This document shows positions 1 to 5,498 of a DNA stretch of 64,000 bases, piece after piece. Numbering within the stretch: position 1 is the first letter of the stretch; each line of letters opens with the position of its first letter. The position numbers and the translations under genes are program-made. The notes below the pieces were generated by a model. That model did not search any database, was not told the DNA's origin, and saw only the letters and a program-made list of their open reading frames with translations. Origin of the DNA: Candidatus Nomurabacteria bacterium (GTDB lineage: Bacteria > Patescibacteriota > Minisyncoccia > Phycocordibacterales > UBA918); the NCBI GenBank assembly GCA_023898525.1, contig CP060227.1, positions 85,079 to 149,078 on the forward strand, given 5' to 3'.

Positions 1-413
1 CGGACGTTCATCATCTCCGCATAGGCAGTGAACTTGCCGATCTCACGGCGCGTATCCATGGCGTACGGCTCAGGGCCGGGGTGGGGACGCTTGGTGCTCT
101 CCAGACCCAGCCAGAAGATGACGCAACCAGGGACGTTCGGTTCGAGTCCAGCCTGCTTCAGGTAGTGGCGTTCCCACACGAGCTGACGGTTGTCGGCTTG
201 CGAAAAAGGTTGGTGGAAGTCCTTGGTCAGCGGATGGGACGCATCCCACCGGGATGGACATGCGACAAGCGCCGACGGCTCACGTTGCAGTAGCTGCTTG
301 GCCATGAACGCTTGCCAGTCACCGCCACCACGGATCGGCCCCGCCAAGAAAAACAAGGGGGAATCGACAGTGGGCGTGAGCGGTACGATTTGTTTCGGTA
401 TGTAGATAGGCAT
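1..413 (-). CDS. Partial CDS: the N-terminal 137 codons are in the window and the 3' end runs off the left edge. Likely DNPH1/Rcl-like 2'-deoxynucleoside 5'-phosphate N-hydrolase or nucleoside 2-deoxyribosyltransferase-like protein.
   Basis: I translated the minus strand by hand: MPIYIPKQIVPLTPTVDSPLFFLAGPIRGGGDWQAF...VIFWLGLESTK..., with no stop codon before position 1. The block FFLAGPIRGGGDW resembles the YFCGSIRGG motif of DNPH1/NDT-like enzymes. A strong SD (AGGAGG, 5 nt) precedes the ATG at 413. GC is ~60% against ~40% for the surroundings. Confidence 0.4.
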   Translation of the reverse strand, partial: MPIYIPKQIVPLTPTVDSPLFFLAGPIRGGGDWQAFMAKQLLQREPSALVACPSRWDASHPLTKDFHQPFSQADNRQLVWERHYLKQAGLEPNVPGCVIFWLGLESTKRPHPGPEPYAMDTRREIGKFTAYAEMMNV

Positions 414-513
414 TTCGCCCTCCTGCTGAAAGGTTCAAGTAGACGGAGAACTTATAGGGTTCAACCCAGAAGCTGACCAAACAATATAATGAAAATGTTG
501 GTTTGTAAAGACT

Positions 514-1665
514 TCAATTTTCCTCCACATTTTCAACGATGAACTTTGCTCTGTTATATAGTTCATCAAAAGTGACAATGTCTACTCCATGGATACTTTT
601 CCTGAATCGTTGGAATGTCTCACGTTTGCTTCTACTGTCAAGCAGGGTTTCCAGCTTTCCGATAACGATGATTCCTTTTGGTTGTATAGTGAACACGTTT
701 TGAGCCTCAAACCTATCTCTATTGTCTGGTTGCTCAGACCCTTGTTTGTCCCATGTGTGAATGTTTGCTTCAATTTGAGAAAGCGCATCAGTCAAATCTT
801 TTGCTAAACTCCAGGCACCATTTCTGATTTCTTGTGATCCTTGAAGGAGAGAGGTGTCTGGTGTCTTTATCTCAACCAAAACAGTAAAGCTCATATCTCC
901 ATCAGTAGCTGTCAAATAATCTCCTCTTTCTCCTCCCTTACCGTCCACCTTCACTCCACCATAGTGTGGCTGTGACTGCTCTTGCCTCAATATTTGGTAA
1001 TTTAAGCCATATCCAAAAATCCACTTATTTTCTTCAAAAAAATTTTGCCACCATGCTTCATCTGAAGCATGGTTTATAAGTCCATTTTCAAACTCTTTTA
1101 ACTTTTCACGTCTCTTTAGAAGATTATTTATGTCACTCTGCGTTAAAACTATTCCTTCCGCTGAAGAAAGTTGTTTGATAATATTTCTCACACTCGATGC
1201 GTCTCGTCCCTTCAAAGCATTCACAATCTCGCTCTCACTTTGAGACATTAATGAAAAACTCTCCTCTGGAATTTCAATGTTACGGATTGATCGTAAAAAA
1301 GAAATTAGCTTCCAAAACTCCTCATGACAATCGTTGAGATTTACACTGCCTCTGATTTTATGAACTTCAACCTCTGTCGTTTCTTTTTCTAGAATCTTGT
1401 TCAGAGCCTTGTCTCTAACGGACAAGGCAAGTCTTGGAGTAAACTTTTCACCCTTATTGATAAGCGTAACTTGGCAAATGATATTACGCTTGTCCTTCTC
1501 TTTGAGAACAAACTGCTTTATGAGCCTACGGTCTTTAGAGTGATAAAAGTAGTAGAAATTGTTGATGGGAGTCGAATTGATCTGTAAGTCACTAAAACTA
1601 TCTTTGCCAATAACAAAGTTTTCATTCTTTCCAATAGCATCTTTTAACAATTCCGACCATTTCAT
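514..1665 (-). CDS. Candidate Shedu-like (DUF4263) PD-(D/E)xK nuclease, 383 aa.
   Basis: A long ORF ends at a TGA stop. The C-terminal block EAWWQNFFEENKWIFGYG...GDYLTATDGDMSFTVLVEIKTPDTSLLQGSQ fits a PD-(D/E)xK core (D..D..ExK followed by Q). Architecture is a variable ~230-aa N-terminal domain plus a C-terminal nuclease, as in Shedu SduA. It sits 2 nt downstream of the HTH gene on the same strand. Confidence 0.5.
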   Translation of the reverse strand: MKWSELLKDAIGKNENFVIGKDSFSDLQINSTPINNFYYFYHSKDRRLIKQFVLKEKDKRNIICQVTLINKGEKFTPRLALSVRDKALNKILEKETTEVEVHKIRGSVNLNDCHEEFWKLISFLRSIRNIEIPEESFSLMSQSESEIVNALKGRDASSVRNIIKQLSSAEGIVLTQSDINNLLKRREKLKEFENGLINHASDEAWWQNFFEENKWIFGYGLNYQILRQEQSQPHYGGVKVDGKGGERGDYLTATDGDMSFTVLVEIKTPDTSLLQGSQEIRNGAWSLAKDLTDALSQIEANIHTWDKQGSEQPDNRDRFEAQNVFTIQPKGIIVIGKLETLLDSRSKRETFQRFRKSIHGVDIVTFDELYNRAKFIVENVEEN

Positions 1666-1667
1666 AG

Positions 1668-1904
1668 TTATTTCTGCAAAAGATCATCAACCTTAACTTC
1701 GAGCGCGGTGGCAATTTTGGAGAGGGAGTTGATTGTAGGATTTTGGTTCGTGCCGTCCTCAATCTTAACAACGGTACTTAGTGACAAATCAGCCAGTCGG
1801 GCGACTTTTTCGAGAGAGTAACCCTTTTCGGCACGAATCTTCTTAACATTGCTAGCAATACTCATGTTTTGTTTGTGTAATTTGGTACATATAATATAAT
1901 ACAA
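1668..1904 (-). CDS. XRE-family helix-turn-helix transcriptional regulator.
   Basis: The sequence SIASNVKKIRAEKGYSLEKVARLADLSLSTVVKIEDG is a typical XRE HTH. A TTG start at 1904 is preceded by AAGGAG at 8 nt; an alternative ATG start lies at 1865. The stop overlaps the start region of the nuclease gene. Confidence 0.7.
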   Translation of the reverse strand: MYYIICTKLHKQNMSIASNVKKIRAEKGYSLEKVARLADLSLSTVVKIEDGTNQNPTINSLSKIATALEVKVDDLLQK

Positions 1905-2215
1905 AGTATGTACTCCTTGTATCTAAATAATACGGGATTTGAGATGTTTTGCAATTTTGTGGACTCATTGCGGCGATCCCAAAACAAAGAAATATCCTTT
2001 CCATTTTCTGTCGGCTCCTCCCCAGACCCCTCCACCGAAAATTTGATTGTAAGGATATTTCTTTGGTTTTGGGGGCCGAGCTGGCGAGGCCGCGAGGCGC
2101 GCACAGCATCACCACGTGCCCCAATGCGTACGTTGAGGTACAAAGCCACCACGCGCTCCGCGCGTTGTAGTTATGGTCTTTCCTCGAAATGGGTTCGAGC
2201 AAAGGCTAGTATGTC

Positions 2216-2347
2216 ATCACAAAACGAGACTTCGTCTCGACACAGCGAGCGCGGCGAAGCCGCGCGAGAAAAAGAAGAAGCCAAAACACCCTTTCGTGTG
2301 GCGGCGAATTGGGACGGGACGGGCGCGGCGAAGCGCGCGGATTTGTC
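2216..2347. repeat. Left copy of a 132-bp inverted repeat (GC ~62%).
   Basis: It is the reverse complement of 3765..3896 with one mismatch (GGCGGCGAATT versus GGCGACGAATT). It begins ATCACAAAACGAGACTTCGTCTC, that is, with the last 4 nt of the tRNA-Glu sequence. Confidence 0.9.
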
Positions 2348-2375
2348 CTTGTTTCGTATCTAAAATCACTATCGT

Positions 2376-3953
2376 ATGTCCAAACCAAAATATTTTCTTT
2401 ATGCTCGCAAAAGCACCGAAGACGATGACAAACAAGTCATGTCTATCGAGGCTCAGTTATTTGAGTTGAGAGAATTCGCACATAAAGAAAATCTTGAAAT
2501 CCTAGCGGAGTTTCAAGAGTCGAAAAGCGCAAAGACTCCCGGTCGTGAACAGTTTGCACAAATGATGACGCGCATTGAAGCAGGAGAAGCAAATGGCGTT
2601 TTGGCGTGGCATCCTGACCGTTTGGCGCGAAATAGTATTGATGGCGGGCGCGTCATCTACGCAGTAGACACACAAAAGGTCACGTCTTTGCGCTTTCCGA
2701 CATTTTGGTTTGAACCCACTCCACAGGGGTTGTTTATGTTGCAAGTGGCGTTCGGACAGTCGAAATACCATTCGGACAATCTGACGCAGAATGTGAAGCG
2801 AGGGATGCGCCAAAAAGTGCGGCGAGGCGAGTGGCTCACCAAAGCTCCATTTGGCTATGTGAATAATCCGCGTACGAGAAATATTGAACCGCATCCCGTG
2901 CATAGCAAGATCATCGTGCGGGCTTTTGAGGAGTACGCCAAAGGTGAGCATGGATTGGTTTCTCTCGCCGACTTTTTGTCGCTGCATGGAGTAACGACTG
3001 GCAAGGGAACGCCACTTGGCAAAGCTTCCATCAAACGCATACTGATTAATCGAGCATATCTCGGTTTTGTGAAGCATCATGATGAATGGTTTGAAGGAAG
3101 CTTTGCACCAATCATTTCCCCGAAATTGTTTGAAGCTGTCCAAAAGGTATTGGTACAGCGAGAACGTCCTCGTAAACGGAAAGCGAAGCATGATTTTCCG
3201 TTTGTGGGTATTTTTGAGTGCGGAGAGTGTGGGAGCATGTTCACTGCCCAGTGGGCTACCGGCAAGTGCGGAGGAAAGTATCGATATTATCGTTGCACCA
3301 AGAAGAAAGGCATATGCTCCCAAGGGTACGTCCGTGAGGACATTCTCGCTGACCAACTAAGGGAACAGCTTCAAACCATTTCGCTTTGCGATGCATACAC
3401 TGACTACATGCTCGGCAAAATCGAAGAATGGGAGCGCGAAGAAACTTCCGCATCGCAAAGTGGTGCGCAAAATCTTTCAGAAAATATAAAAGCCAGTGAG
3501 GCACGCATGGATAAACTGGTGGAGAGTTATTTGGATGGCGATATACCGAAAAGCATCTATTTGAAAAAGAAAGACGAGATCATGCGTGCCACCTTGTCTT
3601 TGAAGGAGAAAAAGAAAGATTTTGCACACCAAGGAAATAATTGGGTCGAACCCCTGCGTGAGTGGATTTTAGATACGAAACAAGCCACCTTTTTATCCTC
3701 CAGCGATGATTTCTCCGAAATCGCCGCTTTCGTCAAAAAAGTCGGAACGAACCCCTTGGTTCGTGACAAATCCGCGCGCTTCGCCGCGCCCGTCCCGTCC
3801 CAATTCGTCGCCACACGAAAGGGTGTTTTGGCTTCTTCTTTTTCTCGCGCGGCTTCGCCGCGCTCGCTGTGTCGAGACGAAGTCTCGTTTTGTGATCCCA
3901 CGGGGAATCGAACCCCGATTTGCAGGATGAAAACCTGCTGTCCTAACCATTAG
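2376..3953 (+). CDS. Large serine recombinase (resolvase/invertase N-terminal domain, recombinase domain and zinc ribbon).
   Basis: N-terminus YARKSTEDDDKQVMSIEAQ; DRLARN motif; zinc-ribbon CGECGSMF...RYYRC; C-terminal coiled-coil region. The last ~60 codons are encoded by the right inverted repeat and the tRNA-Glu gene, so the true C-terminus is uncertain. Confidence 0.75.
   Translation: MSKPKYFLYARKSTEDDDKQVMSIEAQLFELREFAHKENLEILAEFQESKSAKTPGREQFAQMMTRIEAGEANGVLAWHPDRLARNSIDGGRVIYAVDTQKVTSLRFPTFWFEPTPQGLFMLQVAFGQSKYHSDNLTQNVKRGMRQKVRRGEWLTKAPFGYVNNPRTRNIEPHPVHSKIIVRAFEEYAKGEHGLVSLADFLSLHGVTTGKGTPLGKASIKRILINRAYLGFVKHHDEWFEGSFAPIISPKLFEAVQKVLVQRERPRKRKAKHDFPFVGIFECGECGSMFTAQWATGKCGGKYRYYRCTKKKGICSQGYVREDILADQLREQLQTISLCDAYTDYMLGKIEEWEREETSASQSGAQNLSENIKASEARMDKLVESYLDGDIPKSIYLKKKDEIMRATLSLKEKKKDFAHQGNNWVEPLREWILDTKQATFLSSSDDFSEIAAFVKKVGTNPLVRDKSARFAAPVPSQFVATRKGVLASSFSRAASPRSLCRDEVSFCDPTGNRTPICRMKTCCPNH
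3765..3896. repeat. Right copy of the 132-bp inverted repeat. It overlaps the 3' end of the recombinase ORF and the last 4 nt of tRNA-Glu.
   Basis: Direct comparison with 2216..2347 (reverse complement, 131/132 identical). Confidence 0.9.
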
Positions 3954-3964
3954 ACGATGGGACC
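3893..3964 (-). tRNA. tRNA-Glu (anticodon UUC).
   Basis: Minus strand GGTCCCATCGTCTAATGGTTAGGACAGCAGGTTTTCATCCTGCAAATCGGGGTTCGATTCCCCGTGGGATCA folds as a cloverleaf: acceptor GGTCCCA/TGGGATC, T-loop TTCGATT, anticodon loop TTTTCAT. CCA is not encoded. Confidence 0.85.
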
Positions 3965-4107
3965 TAATATTTAATTGTTATTTCTTTTACCTCTTTTACT
4001 TAAATTAGATTGGTTTTCATTGATGAAAACTTTTCCTATCACCTCATAAATATCGGTGATTTCTTCCTGACGTCATAACCGGATAAAAAGCTAAACGCTT
4101 TTCATTA

Positions 4108-4131
4108 TCCTAACCATTAGACGATAGGGCC
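4108..4131 (-). repeat. Truncated copy of the tRNA-Glu 5' end (GGCCCTATCGTCTAATGGTTAGGA) inside a ~167-bp tandem unit.
   Basis: It matches positions 1-24 of the tRNA and then diverges, with no T-arm. The unit also carries the palindrome GGTTTTCATTGATGAAAACC (4012..4030). Confidence 0.7.
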
Positions 4132-4236
4132 ATATATTTAATTTTACCTCTTTAACTTCTGTCGCTCCAGTTGAATCGGTTTTCATTGATGAAAACTTTT
4201 CCTTCGAATTAAACAGTATCCCATACTGTTTAATTA

Positions 4237-4260
4237 TCCTAACCATTAGACGATAGGGCC
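4237..4260 (-). repeat. Second truncated tRNA-Glu 5' fragment, in a ~129-bp tandem unit.
   Basis: Same 24-nt fragment; the same palindrome GGTTTTCATTGATGAAAAC lies at 4178..4196. Confidence 0.7.
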
Positions 4261-4433
4261 AAAATTGCGTGGGGCGCAATTTTGGTTGAGTGCAATACCT
4301 AACCCGTTATGCCCCCCTTGGAATTCTACTAACAAAAGCAGGGAATCCACCTTGTGTATCTACTAACAAAACTGCTGTAGAAAACAAGTGGCATATTTAT
4401 AGCAGAAAATAGGGAAGATGTGAAGTCCTTGTA

Positions 4434-5498
4434 CGATCTCACCACCTTTGAGACTCTATCTCATAATGTTCTCTATAATACTCCATGGGCGACAAAAGAC
4501 CCAGTCCTTCATGCGGTCTCTCATGGTTATACCAATACAACCATTCATTCAGTGAATCATTGAAGTCAGGAATACTATCTCGAAGCAGGGATCGGTGATA
4601 AATAATGTGTTCTTCTTGAACGGTACGATTGAATCGCTCTATATAGGCATTCATCTTAGGACAACGTGGATAAGTGTGATAATGGTTGATGTTAAGAGTT
4701 AAACAAGCTTCGTGGAAGTATTTAGCGAATTCTGAACCATTATCAGTCTGTATCTCATCTATACTAAAAGGGGTATAGTGTATAAGTTGTTTTAGAAAGT
4801 CTCGAGCACTATTTGAAGAATGACTGGTATAAGTACGAGCGTAAGCAAACCGTCTTTCTATGTCTATGGCGGTGAGTATGTACCGTTTAGTGCCATCTAT
4901 GTGTCTCACGATAGTGTCTATCTCCAAACCTTGTTTTTGTGGTCTTCTTTGTTTTTTAACCTTGGTTTTTCTTTGTTCTTTGTGTGTACCACTCTTAGCG
5001 TACCAAGAGAGCTTAACTGGATTCGGTAGTCTACCTAGTTCTTTAAGATCACTGATACAGCGATTAACATAGGAAACTGACACCTTGAATCCTTCCTTCT
5101 TCAATAGCGGTACCAGCTTTTTCCCACCAATCCGTGGTCGCTTAGTACGCCAGTTGATAATAGCTTGCTCTAGTGGTGGTGATATCTGTCTCACTCTTCG
5201 TTTCTTAGGAGCAGTACTCTTGGGGTCTAGGGCTTGGATATTACCATTACTATCATTTAGTTCTTTTTGCCATCTAAATAAAGTTGGTCTAGATACGCCA
5301 AAAGCATCTTTGGTGGTATTAGTACCATGTTTTTGCCAAAACGTGAGTATTTTAACTCTTCTTTCGACCTCCTGTTTGTTTTTCATTGTCTGCCACTTTA
5401 GAGCACTATCAGCCGCTTTGGCAAACCCTCTGGTGTTCCTTAAAATGTTATGTATTCTCATTACTCCTTATTTAAGGAGTCTCATATGTATGTGAGAT
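4434..5498 (-). mobile_element. IS481-family insertion sequence (~1.07 kb) with imperfect ~22-bp terminal inverted repeats.
   Basis: Ends GATCTCACCACCTTTGAGACTC (4434..4455) and GAGTCTCATATGTATGTGAGAT (5477..5498) are inverted copies sharing ATCTCAC and TGAGACTC. They enclose a single DDE transposase ORF. Confidence 0.6.
4439..5461 (-). CDS. IS481-family DDE transposase (rve integrase core), 340 aa.
   Basis: N-terminal HTH region, then motifs DNGSEF, HYHTYPRCPKMNAYIERFNRTV and YNHERPHEGLG typical of the IS481/rve family. Confidence 0.8.
   Translation of the reverse strand: MRIHNILRNTRGFAKAADSALKWQTMKNKQEVERRVKILTFWQKHGTNTTKDAFGVSRPTLFRWQKELNDSNGNIQALDPKSTAPKKRRVRQISPPLEQAIINWRTKRPRIGGKKLVPLLKKEGFKVSVSYVNRCISDLKELGRLPNPVKLSWYAKSGTHKEQRKTKVKKQRRPQKQGLEIDTIVRHIDGTKRYILTAIDIERRFAYARTYTSHSSNSARDFLKQLIHYTPFSIDEIQTDNGSEFAKYFHEACLTLNINHYHTYPRCPKMNAYIERFNRTVQEEHIIYHRSLLRDSIPDFNDSLNEWLYWYNHERPHEGLGLLSPMEYYREHYEIESQRW

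Follow-up and report, generated by a model that had tools for sequence, protein, structure and literature searches.

In the 64,000-nucleotide stretch of the Candidatus Nomurabacteria contig CP060227.1 that was analysed here (hereafter the window), the gene of a large serine recombinase (LSR) is enclosed by two long inverted repeats, the arms, of which the right one meets the 3′ end of a tRNA-Glu gene. From the comparison with related loci we conclude that this is probably a small integrative element inserted by the LSR at the tRNA-Glu 3′ end, in which one arm of the element's attachment site, attP, is present twice. The same comparison makes it likely that the right arm is part of the element-host junction attR and that the left arm belongs to an internal attP copy. 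The finding as such is real, and at the level of sequence the junctions show what is expected of an LSR integrative element. The features that carry this interpretation are the following.

2216-2347, plus strand: left arm, proposed P′ (element-side) arm of an internal attP copy and leader at the 5′ end of the recombinase gene (median identity between the two arms of a locus 100% in 61 loci).
2216-2220, plus strand: core ATCAC of the putative internal attP copy (three-junction alignments).
2348-2367, plus strand: 20-nt extension of the left arm (repeat finder; 16-20 nt pair likewise in most relatives).
2376-3953, plus strand: LSR open reading frame (ORF), 525 aa (Pfam Resolvase, Recombinase and Zn_ribbon_recom).
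3685-3764, plus strand: coding segment of 80 nt on the right side only, which splits the repeat (the 80-nt gap is kept across loci).
3765-3896, plus strand: right arm, proposed P′ arm of attR, encoding the C-terminal tail of the recombinase (repeat and junction comparison).
3873-3887, plus strand: hairpin CGAGACGAAGTCTCG followed by TTTTGTG, terminator-like in the direction of the recombinase gene (consensus scan only).
3892/3893-3964, minus strand: tRNA-Glu(ttc), with its 3′ end as the proposed B-type half-site of attR (ARAGORN; Rfam tRNA, 64 bits).

The inverted repeats and their conservation

An earlier note on this DNA, made from the letters alone, had pointed to inverted repeats with 131 of 132 matching positions around one large serine recombinase gene, and both the repeat finder and the domain search bore this out. 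The two arms (132 nt each, 99% complementary, spacing 1417 nt) differ only at position 2304 and enclose a single ORF, and a 132-bp repeat is far above chance expectation. Their high G+C content, put at about 62% in that note, was measured as 60%, compared to a window average of 41%. Since the sequence of 3665-3684 recurs in exact reverse complement in the 20 nt that adjoin the left arm, this arm can be read as a copy of the 3′ end of the recombinase gene from which 80 nt (3685-3764) are missing. A mirror copy of the terminator-like hairpin is located at 2225-2239. In an Rfam scan of positions 1500-4500 with E-values of up to 1, the tRNA alone was matched, and the arms as well as region X, a conserved non-coding region to their left that is described below, match no RNA family. 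RNAalifold returned no consensus structure for 37 left arms, since MAFFT mis-registers their variable hairpins; arm hairpins with compensating changes were judged by eye only.

Related loci, numbered L in the following, came from a scan of one genome per species, which yielded at least 555 confirmed loci, and from a metagenome scan, which yielded at least 585. We fetched 164 loci, and the layout in genomes was compared for the best 80 of the at least 555 loci. In about 70 of these 80, arms were found at -157 to -27 and +1389 to +1519, with a length of about 131 nt that changes to 115 or 140 nt in subfamilies, and a short inner repeat block is likewise displaced by 80 nt. The same layout is present in metagenome loci, the recombinases of which are 45-58% identical to that of the window. 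The earlier note had suggested looking in related genomes for the recombinase with or without the repeats, and the repeats indeed recur, with arms of at least 70 nt in 97 loci. The right arm nearly always meets an oppositely oriented tRNA gene at its 3′ end, and the 13 types of target comprise Glu, Arg, Ser, Leu, Gly, Lys, Val, Ala, Pro, Trp, Asp and Phe tRNAs or tmRNA, the latter in L061, L068 and L114. The architecture is also found in the complete chromosomes CP060229.1 and OY970382.1. Because the arms recur at the same positions in 97 loci, i.e. in independent assemblies including complete chromosomes, an assembly artefact, which had been considered in the earlier note, can be excluded.

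Within loci, the arms were exactly identical in 34 and at least 98% identical in 49 of the 61 genome loci, compared to a median identity of 63% for right arms between loci. The arms appear to evolve in concert, for which gene conversion or frequent recombination would be the simplest cause. Some genomes contain several copies of the recombinase family. Judging from the sequences compared, the architecture is common to hundreds of Patescibacteria genomes, and the family is apparently undescribed; we found no description of this architecture in the literature searched. Genomic islands of Patescibacteria have been reported, with recombinases or tRNAs unmentioned (PMC12455944, 2025).

The recombinase and its reading frame

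By all testable sequence criteria, the window protein is an LSR. PF00239 (Resolvase) matched residues 7-153 (5e-23), i.e. a catalytic domain in which the serine nucleophile is present, and R11, K12 and S13 are invariant among 52 homologues; PF07508 and PF13408, which represent the recombinase and zinc-ribbon domains, both matched. Long helices at residues 339-386 and 392-418 of the AlphaFold model form an inserted coiled coil, and the closest solved structure, the SPbeta integrase 9dxh, aligned with residues 9-415. The protein has thousands of relatives, of which the named ones all belong to Patescibacteria and many are exactly 525 aa long with full coverage; an exact look-up of the window recombinase returned no record. 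Since no relatives were found among the viral contigs of IMG/VR, it is not a recognised phage integrase.

The recombinase ORF runs through the right arm and into the tRNA gene, as had been noted before for its last ~60 codons. These are codons 464-525, with residues 464-507 encoded by the right arm and residues 508-525 by the tRNA gene, and the last 15-18 residues are determined by DNA beyond the core. In the recombinase frame, the right arm is free of stops in 61 of 61 loci, and the other five frames are stopped in 11-45 loci. In nearly all loci, the start codon and the tRNA are separated by 1516 nt or by a length that deviates from this in steps of three (1468, 1513, 1522, 1525), with L016 (1511) as an exception. 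The codon-position bias is 1.3-1.4 in the arm, 1.4 in codons 400-463, 0.95 in the tRNA-encoded part and 3.4 in the catalytic domain. According to the AlphaFold model, the confident fold ends at about residue 460, with means of 61-87 for 10-residue blocks from 321 to 460 and a pLDDT below 50 for residues 461-525. From the open frame, the codon bias and the model we conclude that the arm is probably translated into a weakly constrained, disordered tail.

Proposed attachment-site junctions at the tRNA gene

The right repeat had been described as starting in the last 4 nt (ATCA) of tRNA-Glu, which holds with an overlap of 4-5 nt (ATCA/ATCAC), so that the last 4-5 nt of the tRNA gene come from the right arm. 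In 17 loci we could align three junctions, i.e. the far-left junction between X and the host-side half-site N (X.core.N), the internal junction between X and the left arm (X.core.arm) and the tRNA junction (tRNA.core.arm). The far-left and the internal junctions share X up to the core, the internal and the tRNA junctions share the arm from the core on, and only 3-7 nt are common to all three. Junctions that share nothing but a short core are the pattern expected of site-specific integration, as for an LSR integrative element. The aligned junctions place the common core at N-C-R-C, with TCAC(AAA) at tRNA-Glu, CCGC(A) at tRNA-Ser and GCAC(A) at Leu and Gly, and unoccupied tRNA-Glu and tRNA-Ser genes elsewhere terminate in the same cores. 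Between the two arms, the core is repeated in inverted and not in direct orientation. We propose the assignments attB = tRNA.core.N, attP = X.core.arm, attR = tRNA.core.arm and attL = X.core.N.

The spacing of sequence motifs around the core points in the same direction. The motif RDTTCGNG in X begins 25 nt from the outer base of the arm in 55 of 69 loci, and the tRNA T-loop motif begins 19 nt from this base in 70 of 83 loci, which results in an offset of 6 nt relative to the core. In the Listeria A118-type integrase, the zinc-ribbon motif is located 5 bp nearer to the centre in attB than in attP, which is the basis of site discrimination (PMC3783163). The offset observed here agrees with such a difference of about 5 bp between attP and attB, and by analogy X would be a P-type half-site, with a B-type half-site formed by the T-arm and acceptor of the tRNA. 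The conserved T-loop appears to serve as the motif for the zinc-ribbon domain. T-loops are nearly universal in tRNAs, which might be the reason for the spread of the family over many tRNA species.

Gene order also speaks for an insertion. The order is Ser-Glu-element-Val-gene in L069 vs Ser-Glu-318 nt-Val-gene in L030, and the element located between Ser and Val in L031 is replaced by a 361-nt spacer in L019. The unit interrupting synteny spans from X′, the far copy of X, to the right arm.

In L034, L036, L046 and L054, the right arm meets only a tRNA 3′ fragment or a degenerate T-arm, and a full tRNA follows 166 nt beyond the right-arm junction in L036; this suggests secondary or remnant attachment sites.

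Region X and the cargo

The element reaches further to the left than position 2216, over X, a helix-turn-helix (HTH) gene, a Shedu gene and beyond, past the start of the window; this part had gone unseen in the earlier note. The features on this side are listed below.

~1968-2215, plus strand: region X, conserved and non-coding, of which the core-proximal ~35 nt are the proposed P-type half-site of attP (conserved in most loci).
1978-2072, no strand: long hairpin at the cargo end of X, with stem arms at 1978-2004 and 2046-2072 and a C-rich loop of 41 nt (repeat finder).
2191-2215, plus strand: T-loop-like motif GGGTTCGAGCAAAGG followed by TAGTATGTC, abutting the core (unique 30-mer in the window).
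1-1967, minus strand: right-hand part of the cargo, which continues past the window start (Pfam and Logan contigs).
1-414, minus strand: partial ORF, cargo.
514-1665, minus strand: Shedu SduA-like defence gene, cargo (SduA_C, 1.6e-31).
1668-1904, minus strand: XRE-type HTH regulator gene, cargo (HTH_3, 2e-11).

In 69 of 90 loci, the left arm is directly preceded by X. In the window it includes GC-rich motifs, e.g. CCACCACGCGCTCCGCGCG, and ends with GGGTTCGAGCAAAGG-CTAGTATGTC right before the arm; the stem sequences of its hairpin vary between subfamilies, with complementarity being kept. A second, inverted copy of X (220-270 nt, 98-100% identical) is located 1.3-5.5 kb further left in 22 of the 39 loci with sufficient upstream DNA, and the identity of this far copy always ends 2-7 nt into the arm sequence. 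The pair of X copies encloses variable cargo, which in other loci comprises surface proteins, methyltransferases, an OLD-like ATPase, toxin-like genes and a restriction-modification system; an XRE-type HTH (HTH_3) gene adjoins the inner X in many relatives. Many contigs end within X, including the Logan contig L081, because a long perfect inverted repeat breaks short-read assemblies. A look-up with the Shedu protein yielded two short Logan contigs, L081 and L082, which match window positions 1-1999 with 100% identity and extend 815 nt to the left, over which no end of the element was reached. The cargo of the window is present in the sequencing runs SRR12358675/6.

Some further observations concern these regions. 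The leftmost cargo (window 1-420 and L081 1587-2617) has a G+C content of 59-63%, far above that of the host DNA, and encodes a 184-aa protein of no assigned function and a 153-aa protein with a Phage_30_3 match; judging from this high-G+C part, the cargo itself looks mosaic. The 41-nt hairpin loop of X (2005-2045) reads GGCTCCTCCCCAGACCCCTCC in the window and the reverse complement, GGAGGGGTCTGGGGAGGAGCC, in many relatives (L037, L050, L030 and others). The two loop orientations are about equally common, the remainder of X keeps its orientation, and the loop is Shine-Dalgarno-like on one strand and anti-Shine-Dalgarno-like on the other. A promoter-like TCGAAA-17 nt-TAGTAT in X (2170-2215) ends 4 nt before the core and faces the left arm with the recombinase gene behind it. 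It was noticed on visual inspection and missed by the consensus scan, and the -10-like TA(G/A)TAT is conserved across loci; tentatively, this could be the recombinase promoter inside the putative binding site of the recombinase. We set aside X as a degenerate tRNA, since ARAGORN and Rfam were negative and T-stem complementarity is missing; a tRNA origin of X is possible. A 7-nt direct repeat, GATCCCA (near 1974 and at 3894), was dropped as a candidate for the element ends, because L050 lacks it and the inverted X shows a boundary further left.

Proposed organisation of the element

Taken together, an integrative element of a few kb would have been put at the 3′ end of tRNA-Glu by the LSR. Its attachment region, X.core.arm, would span about 400 bp, of which the actual attP would be only the ~55 bp around the core, and this region would be present in two inverted copies. 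Integration via one copy would split it into attR (tRNA.core.right arm, 3765-3896 plus the tRNA) and attL (X′.core.host flank), and the second copy would stay whole as X.core.left arm (1968-2347), immediately before the recombinase gene. Gene conversion or repeated inversion would keep the arms identical, and identical arms would in turn let the recombinase segment, and likewise the cargo between the X copies, take either orientation. From these comparisons we infer cutting at the core by the LSR and a circle with two attP sites. Our preferred guesses for the internal attP are that it doubles as promoter and operator of the recombinase gene and that it allows the circle to integrate either way round.

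Rearranged loci are informative in this respect. In L003, the protein of which is 94% identical, and in L105, the tRNA is found on the 5′ side of the gene, next to the left arm, and L084 has the order LSR-arm.X(rc)-cargo-HTH-X, with X(rc) for X in reverse complement, which is the permutation expected from integration through the other attP copy. The tails of 10 of 120 protein clusters end with ...CD[ED]I[LI]AFARTHFE, encoded by X(rc), in place of the tRNA-encoded ...CDPTGNRTPI, and some short contigs with X(rc)-type tails could derive from circles. Both orientations were seen between genomes, not inside one population. In L135 (9680-11620), the cassette is located between tRNA-Leu(taa), which is part of its native Cys-Leu cluster, and tRNA-Leu(caa), with inverted repeats of 205 nt that run into both tRNA-Leu genes. 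This locus looks like the breakpoint of a chromosomal inversion and could be the product predicted for a reaction of the spare attP with a second tRNA gene; homologous recombination of two elements might equally lead to it. In L083, the cassette is found between two different X-cargo units and the arms are about 70% alike; in L015 (1300-1610), the 3′ end of a second recombinase abuts the far X copy; the arms of L114 are drawn from two lineages; and L078 has no X. Such variants are compatible with recombination between several att-type sites or between elements.

The array in L083 (1-7200) consists of a first unit with an HTH gene and two unannotated genes, and a second unit with HTH, APH kinase, AAA_18 ATPase and Bro-N genes. 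A divergent pair of tRNA-Glu and tRNA-Ser(cga) genes occurs in both orientations among genomes, i.e. as element-Glu(-)-Ser(+)-Val(+) or element-Ser(-)-Glu(+)-Val(+) (L019, L021, L033, L060, L075, L076, L079 and L080 vs L022, L023, L028, L030, L031 and L039), and both of its outward 3′ ends are targeted by the element family. The pair may have been flipped via recombination between elements.

Several points weigh against the organisation proposed above. At about 400 bp, the duplicated block greatly exceeds the length of any LSR att site, for which the model gives no reason. The ratio of the two orientations is about 9:1, and equal use of both attP copies predicts about 1:1; therefore the sites are unequally used, the two states are unequally stable, or the rarer state arises by occasional homologous inversion. 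Some loci, namely L078, L083, L114 and L015, are not simply accommodated. No nucleotide-exact empty site from a near-identical strain was found; the genomes of the gene-order comparison are too diverged for one, and none turned up in other genomes. No excised circle was seen, with terminal overlap in 0 of the 164 fetched loci, which carries little weight because such repeats break assemblies. The attL of the window's own element lies outside the data, to the left of the window, the host-side half-site N lacks conservation, which is unusual for attB sites of LSRs, and no recombination directionality factor (RDF) was recognised.

Whether the doubled, inverted attP is a working device and not a by-product is a separate matter, and we regard a device as rather unlikely. 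It might act in three ways. The spare attP would react with a second tRNA gene and thus cause chromosomal inversions, for which L135 and the orientations of the Glu/Ser pair are candidates; integration or inversion would swap the tail of the integrase between an X-encoded and a tRNA-encoded form, which might control activity or stability without an RDF; and an attP copy at the recombinase promoter would autoregulate expression.

Alternative explanations

An invertible cassette had been suggested in the earlier note, and both orientations indeed occur among relatives, as described above for L003, L105, L084 and the tails of the protein clusters. As a programmed switch, the recombinase would invert its own gene via the arms and thereby alter the promoter context (X vs read-through from the tRNA) and the last ~15-18 residues. 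Both orientations do occur in several lineages, in part among very close relatives, e.g. with P0003 and P0004 one way and P0006 the other, all of them 88-89% identical to the query, the arms are perfectly homogenised, and the frame always crosses the junction, so that the tail varies with the orientation. However, the recombining sites would be attP-like and attR-like, which are not recombined by LSRs in the established model (PMC3783163), and we therefore do not assume a cassette flip driven by the recombinase. The arms are also five times as long as a recombinase site, the tail is predicted to be disordered, and the second X copy and the junction with host DNA would be left unexplained. Homologous recombination of the RecA type between repeats of 132-152 bp would yield the same inversions. 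The programming itself is unsupported, and we consider such a switch improbable.

A foldback or terminal inverted repeat (TIR) element, another suggestion of the earlier note, would consist of arm-recombinase-arm (1.68 kb) and be mobile via a circle with palindromic joined arms; it would insert at cores beside tRNA-like half-sites, with X and the cargo as a separate non-autonomous unit. This would account for cassettes between X and a tRNA, between two X (L083), between two tRNA-Leu genes (L135) or without X (L078), and for the fact that both kinds of units are bounded by inverted repeats meeting at cores. Against this, X adjoins the left arm in most of the loci, as given above, the X pair surrounds the cargo and terminates exactly at the core, and the arms of L083 and L114 are unlike, which is unexpected for a cassette with its own terminal repeats. 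In addition, the synteny comparisons show the whole X′...arm unit inserted, so that the mobile unit exceeds the repeat-flanked gene, and its junctions resemble the att sites of serine integrases. We judge a foldback element to be very improbable.

That the repeats are a non-functional scar of an old inverted duplication, or a mis-join of reads, is hardly credible: the left arm does resemble a deleted copy of the 3′ end of the gene, arms are decayed in some loci and the tie to tRNA integration drawn in the earlier note stands, but the same arms, 80-nt omission and positions in 97 independent loci, the conservation of a homogeneous duplication down to 45% LSR identity, and arms that differ between loci yet match within a locus speak against both, since a scar would diverge and an artefact would not co-vary.

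Neighbourhood on the 5′ side of tRNA-Glu

Upstream of tRNA-Glu (window 3941-4272), its initial 24 nt, which comprise the 5′ acceptor strand and the D-arm, recur twice, at 4108-4131 and 4237-4260, and the upstream spacer of the tRNA is partly repeated as well, including a hairpin TTTTCATTGATGAAAA. In L003, the 5′ part of the tRNA is similarly duplicated together with the 17 nt upstream of it (2034-2078 and 2236-2280). These repeats may be remnants of a different type of element that replaces the tRNA 5′ half. A transposase gene of the insertion sequence (IS) type, with an rve integrase core and HTH_32, is located just upstream of the tRNA-Glu locus (4439-5461, minus strand).

Significance

Patescibacteria, or the candidate phyla radiation (CPR), have tiny genomes and few recognised routes of gene exchange, and the recombinase family is very widespread among them. 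In view of this wide spread and of the defence and restriction-modification cargo, the family may be a main vehicle of accessory genes in Patescibacteria. The long perfect repeats explain the systematic breaks of CPR assemblies beside these tRNA genes. For engineering, the family offers many natural pairs of LSRs and att sites directed at different tRNA 3′ ends. A design in which attP is duplicated and the integrase gene lies across its own crossover site is unreported in the literature that we searched.

Comparison with known systems

With large serine integrases (A118/LI, Bxb1, phiC31, SPbeta SprA), the recombinase shares the domains, i.e. a catalytic domain with R11-K12-S13, the recombinase domain, the zinc ribbon and a long coiled coil. 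Likewise in common are a short crossover core found in attP, attB, attL and attR, and a binding motif that is more distant from the centre of the element site than from that of the host site. In contrast to these integrases, the element targets tRNA/tmRNA 3′ ends, its putative attP occurs twice and inverted within repeats of ~400 bp, and the ORF of the integrase spans one attP arm together with the crossover point; moreover, no RDF was recognised, the outer half-site of the host is unconserved and relatives are absent from IMG/VR. The tRNA target, the putative duplicated inverted attP in ~400-bp repeats, the ORF across the core and the lack of a recognisable RDF thus set the element apart from known LSR elements.

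IS607-type elements have a small serine transposase that begins with a MerR-like HTH; they lack terminal repeats, and their target specificity is low. The element described here differs, as its catalytic domain comes first and is followed by the recombinase domain and the zinc ribbon, and its target is strictly the tRNA/tmRNA 3′ end. Terminal repeats at the true ends together with a direct target-site duplication, as in TIR and foldback elements, were not found.

Hin/Gin/Pin invertible segments and the Tsr large serine invertases of Bacteroides use sites of ~26 bp or short promoter inverted repeats, and they switch the expression of neighbouring genes. The likeness consists in a serine recombinase gene in or beside a segment bounded by inverted repeats and in the occurrence of both orientations, here between genomes. 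Unlike these systems, which in the case of Hin/Gin rely on a small invertase, ~26-bp sites and an enhancer, the element has a 525-aa LSR and arms of 132-152 bp, one of them in a tRNA junction, and no evident switched gene besides the recombinase.

The yeast 2-micron plasmid relies on the tyrosine recombinase Flp, amplifies its copy number and replicates autonomously. If a circle exists, the element would resemble 2-micron- or plastid-type molecules in having two long inverted repeats with recombination sites and two unique segments that isomerise; in contrast to the 2-micron plasmid, neither a replication gene nor a circle was seen for it. In the integration-dependent immunity of mycobacteriophages, which Broussard et al. 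are said to have described in 2013, a repressor ORF reportedly crosses attP, the integrase is a tyrosine integrase and the effect of the tail was shown experimentally. By analogy, an ORF across attP would here too have its C-terminus altered by integration, with the integrase itself being affected.

Tycheposons of Prochlorococcus mostly have tyrosine recombinases and are flanked by direct partial-tRNA repeats (10.1101/2020.12.28.424599). Unlike these, the element has an LSR, only a 3-7-nt core in common with the tRNA and a double inverted-repeat structure, and its far junction consists of X and the 3-7-nt core in place of a partial tRNA as direct repeat. Both are small, cargo-bearing, specific for tRNA/tmRNA genes and found in streamlined genomes, their recombinase lineages are tied to particular tRNAs and their cargo turnover is high (10.1101/2020.12.28.424599), which makes Tycheposons the closest ecological analogue of the element described here.

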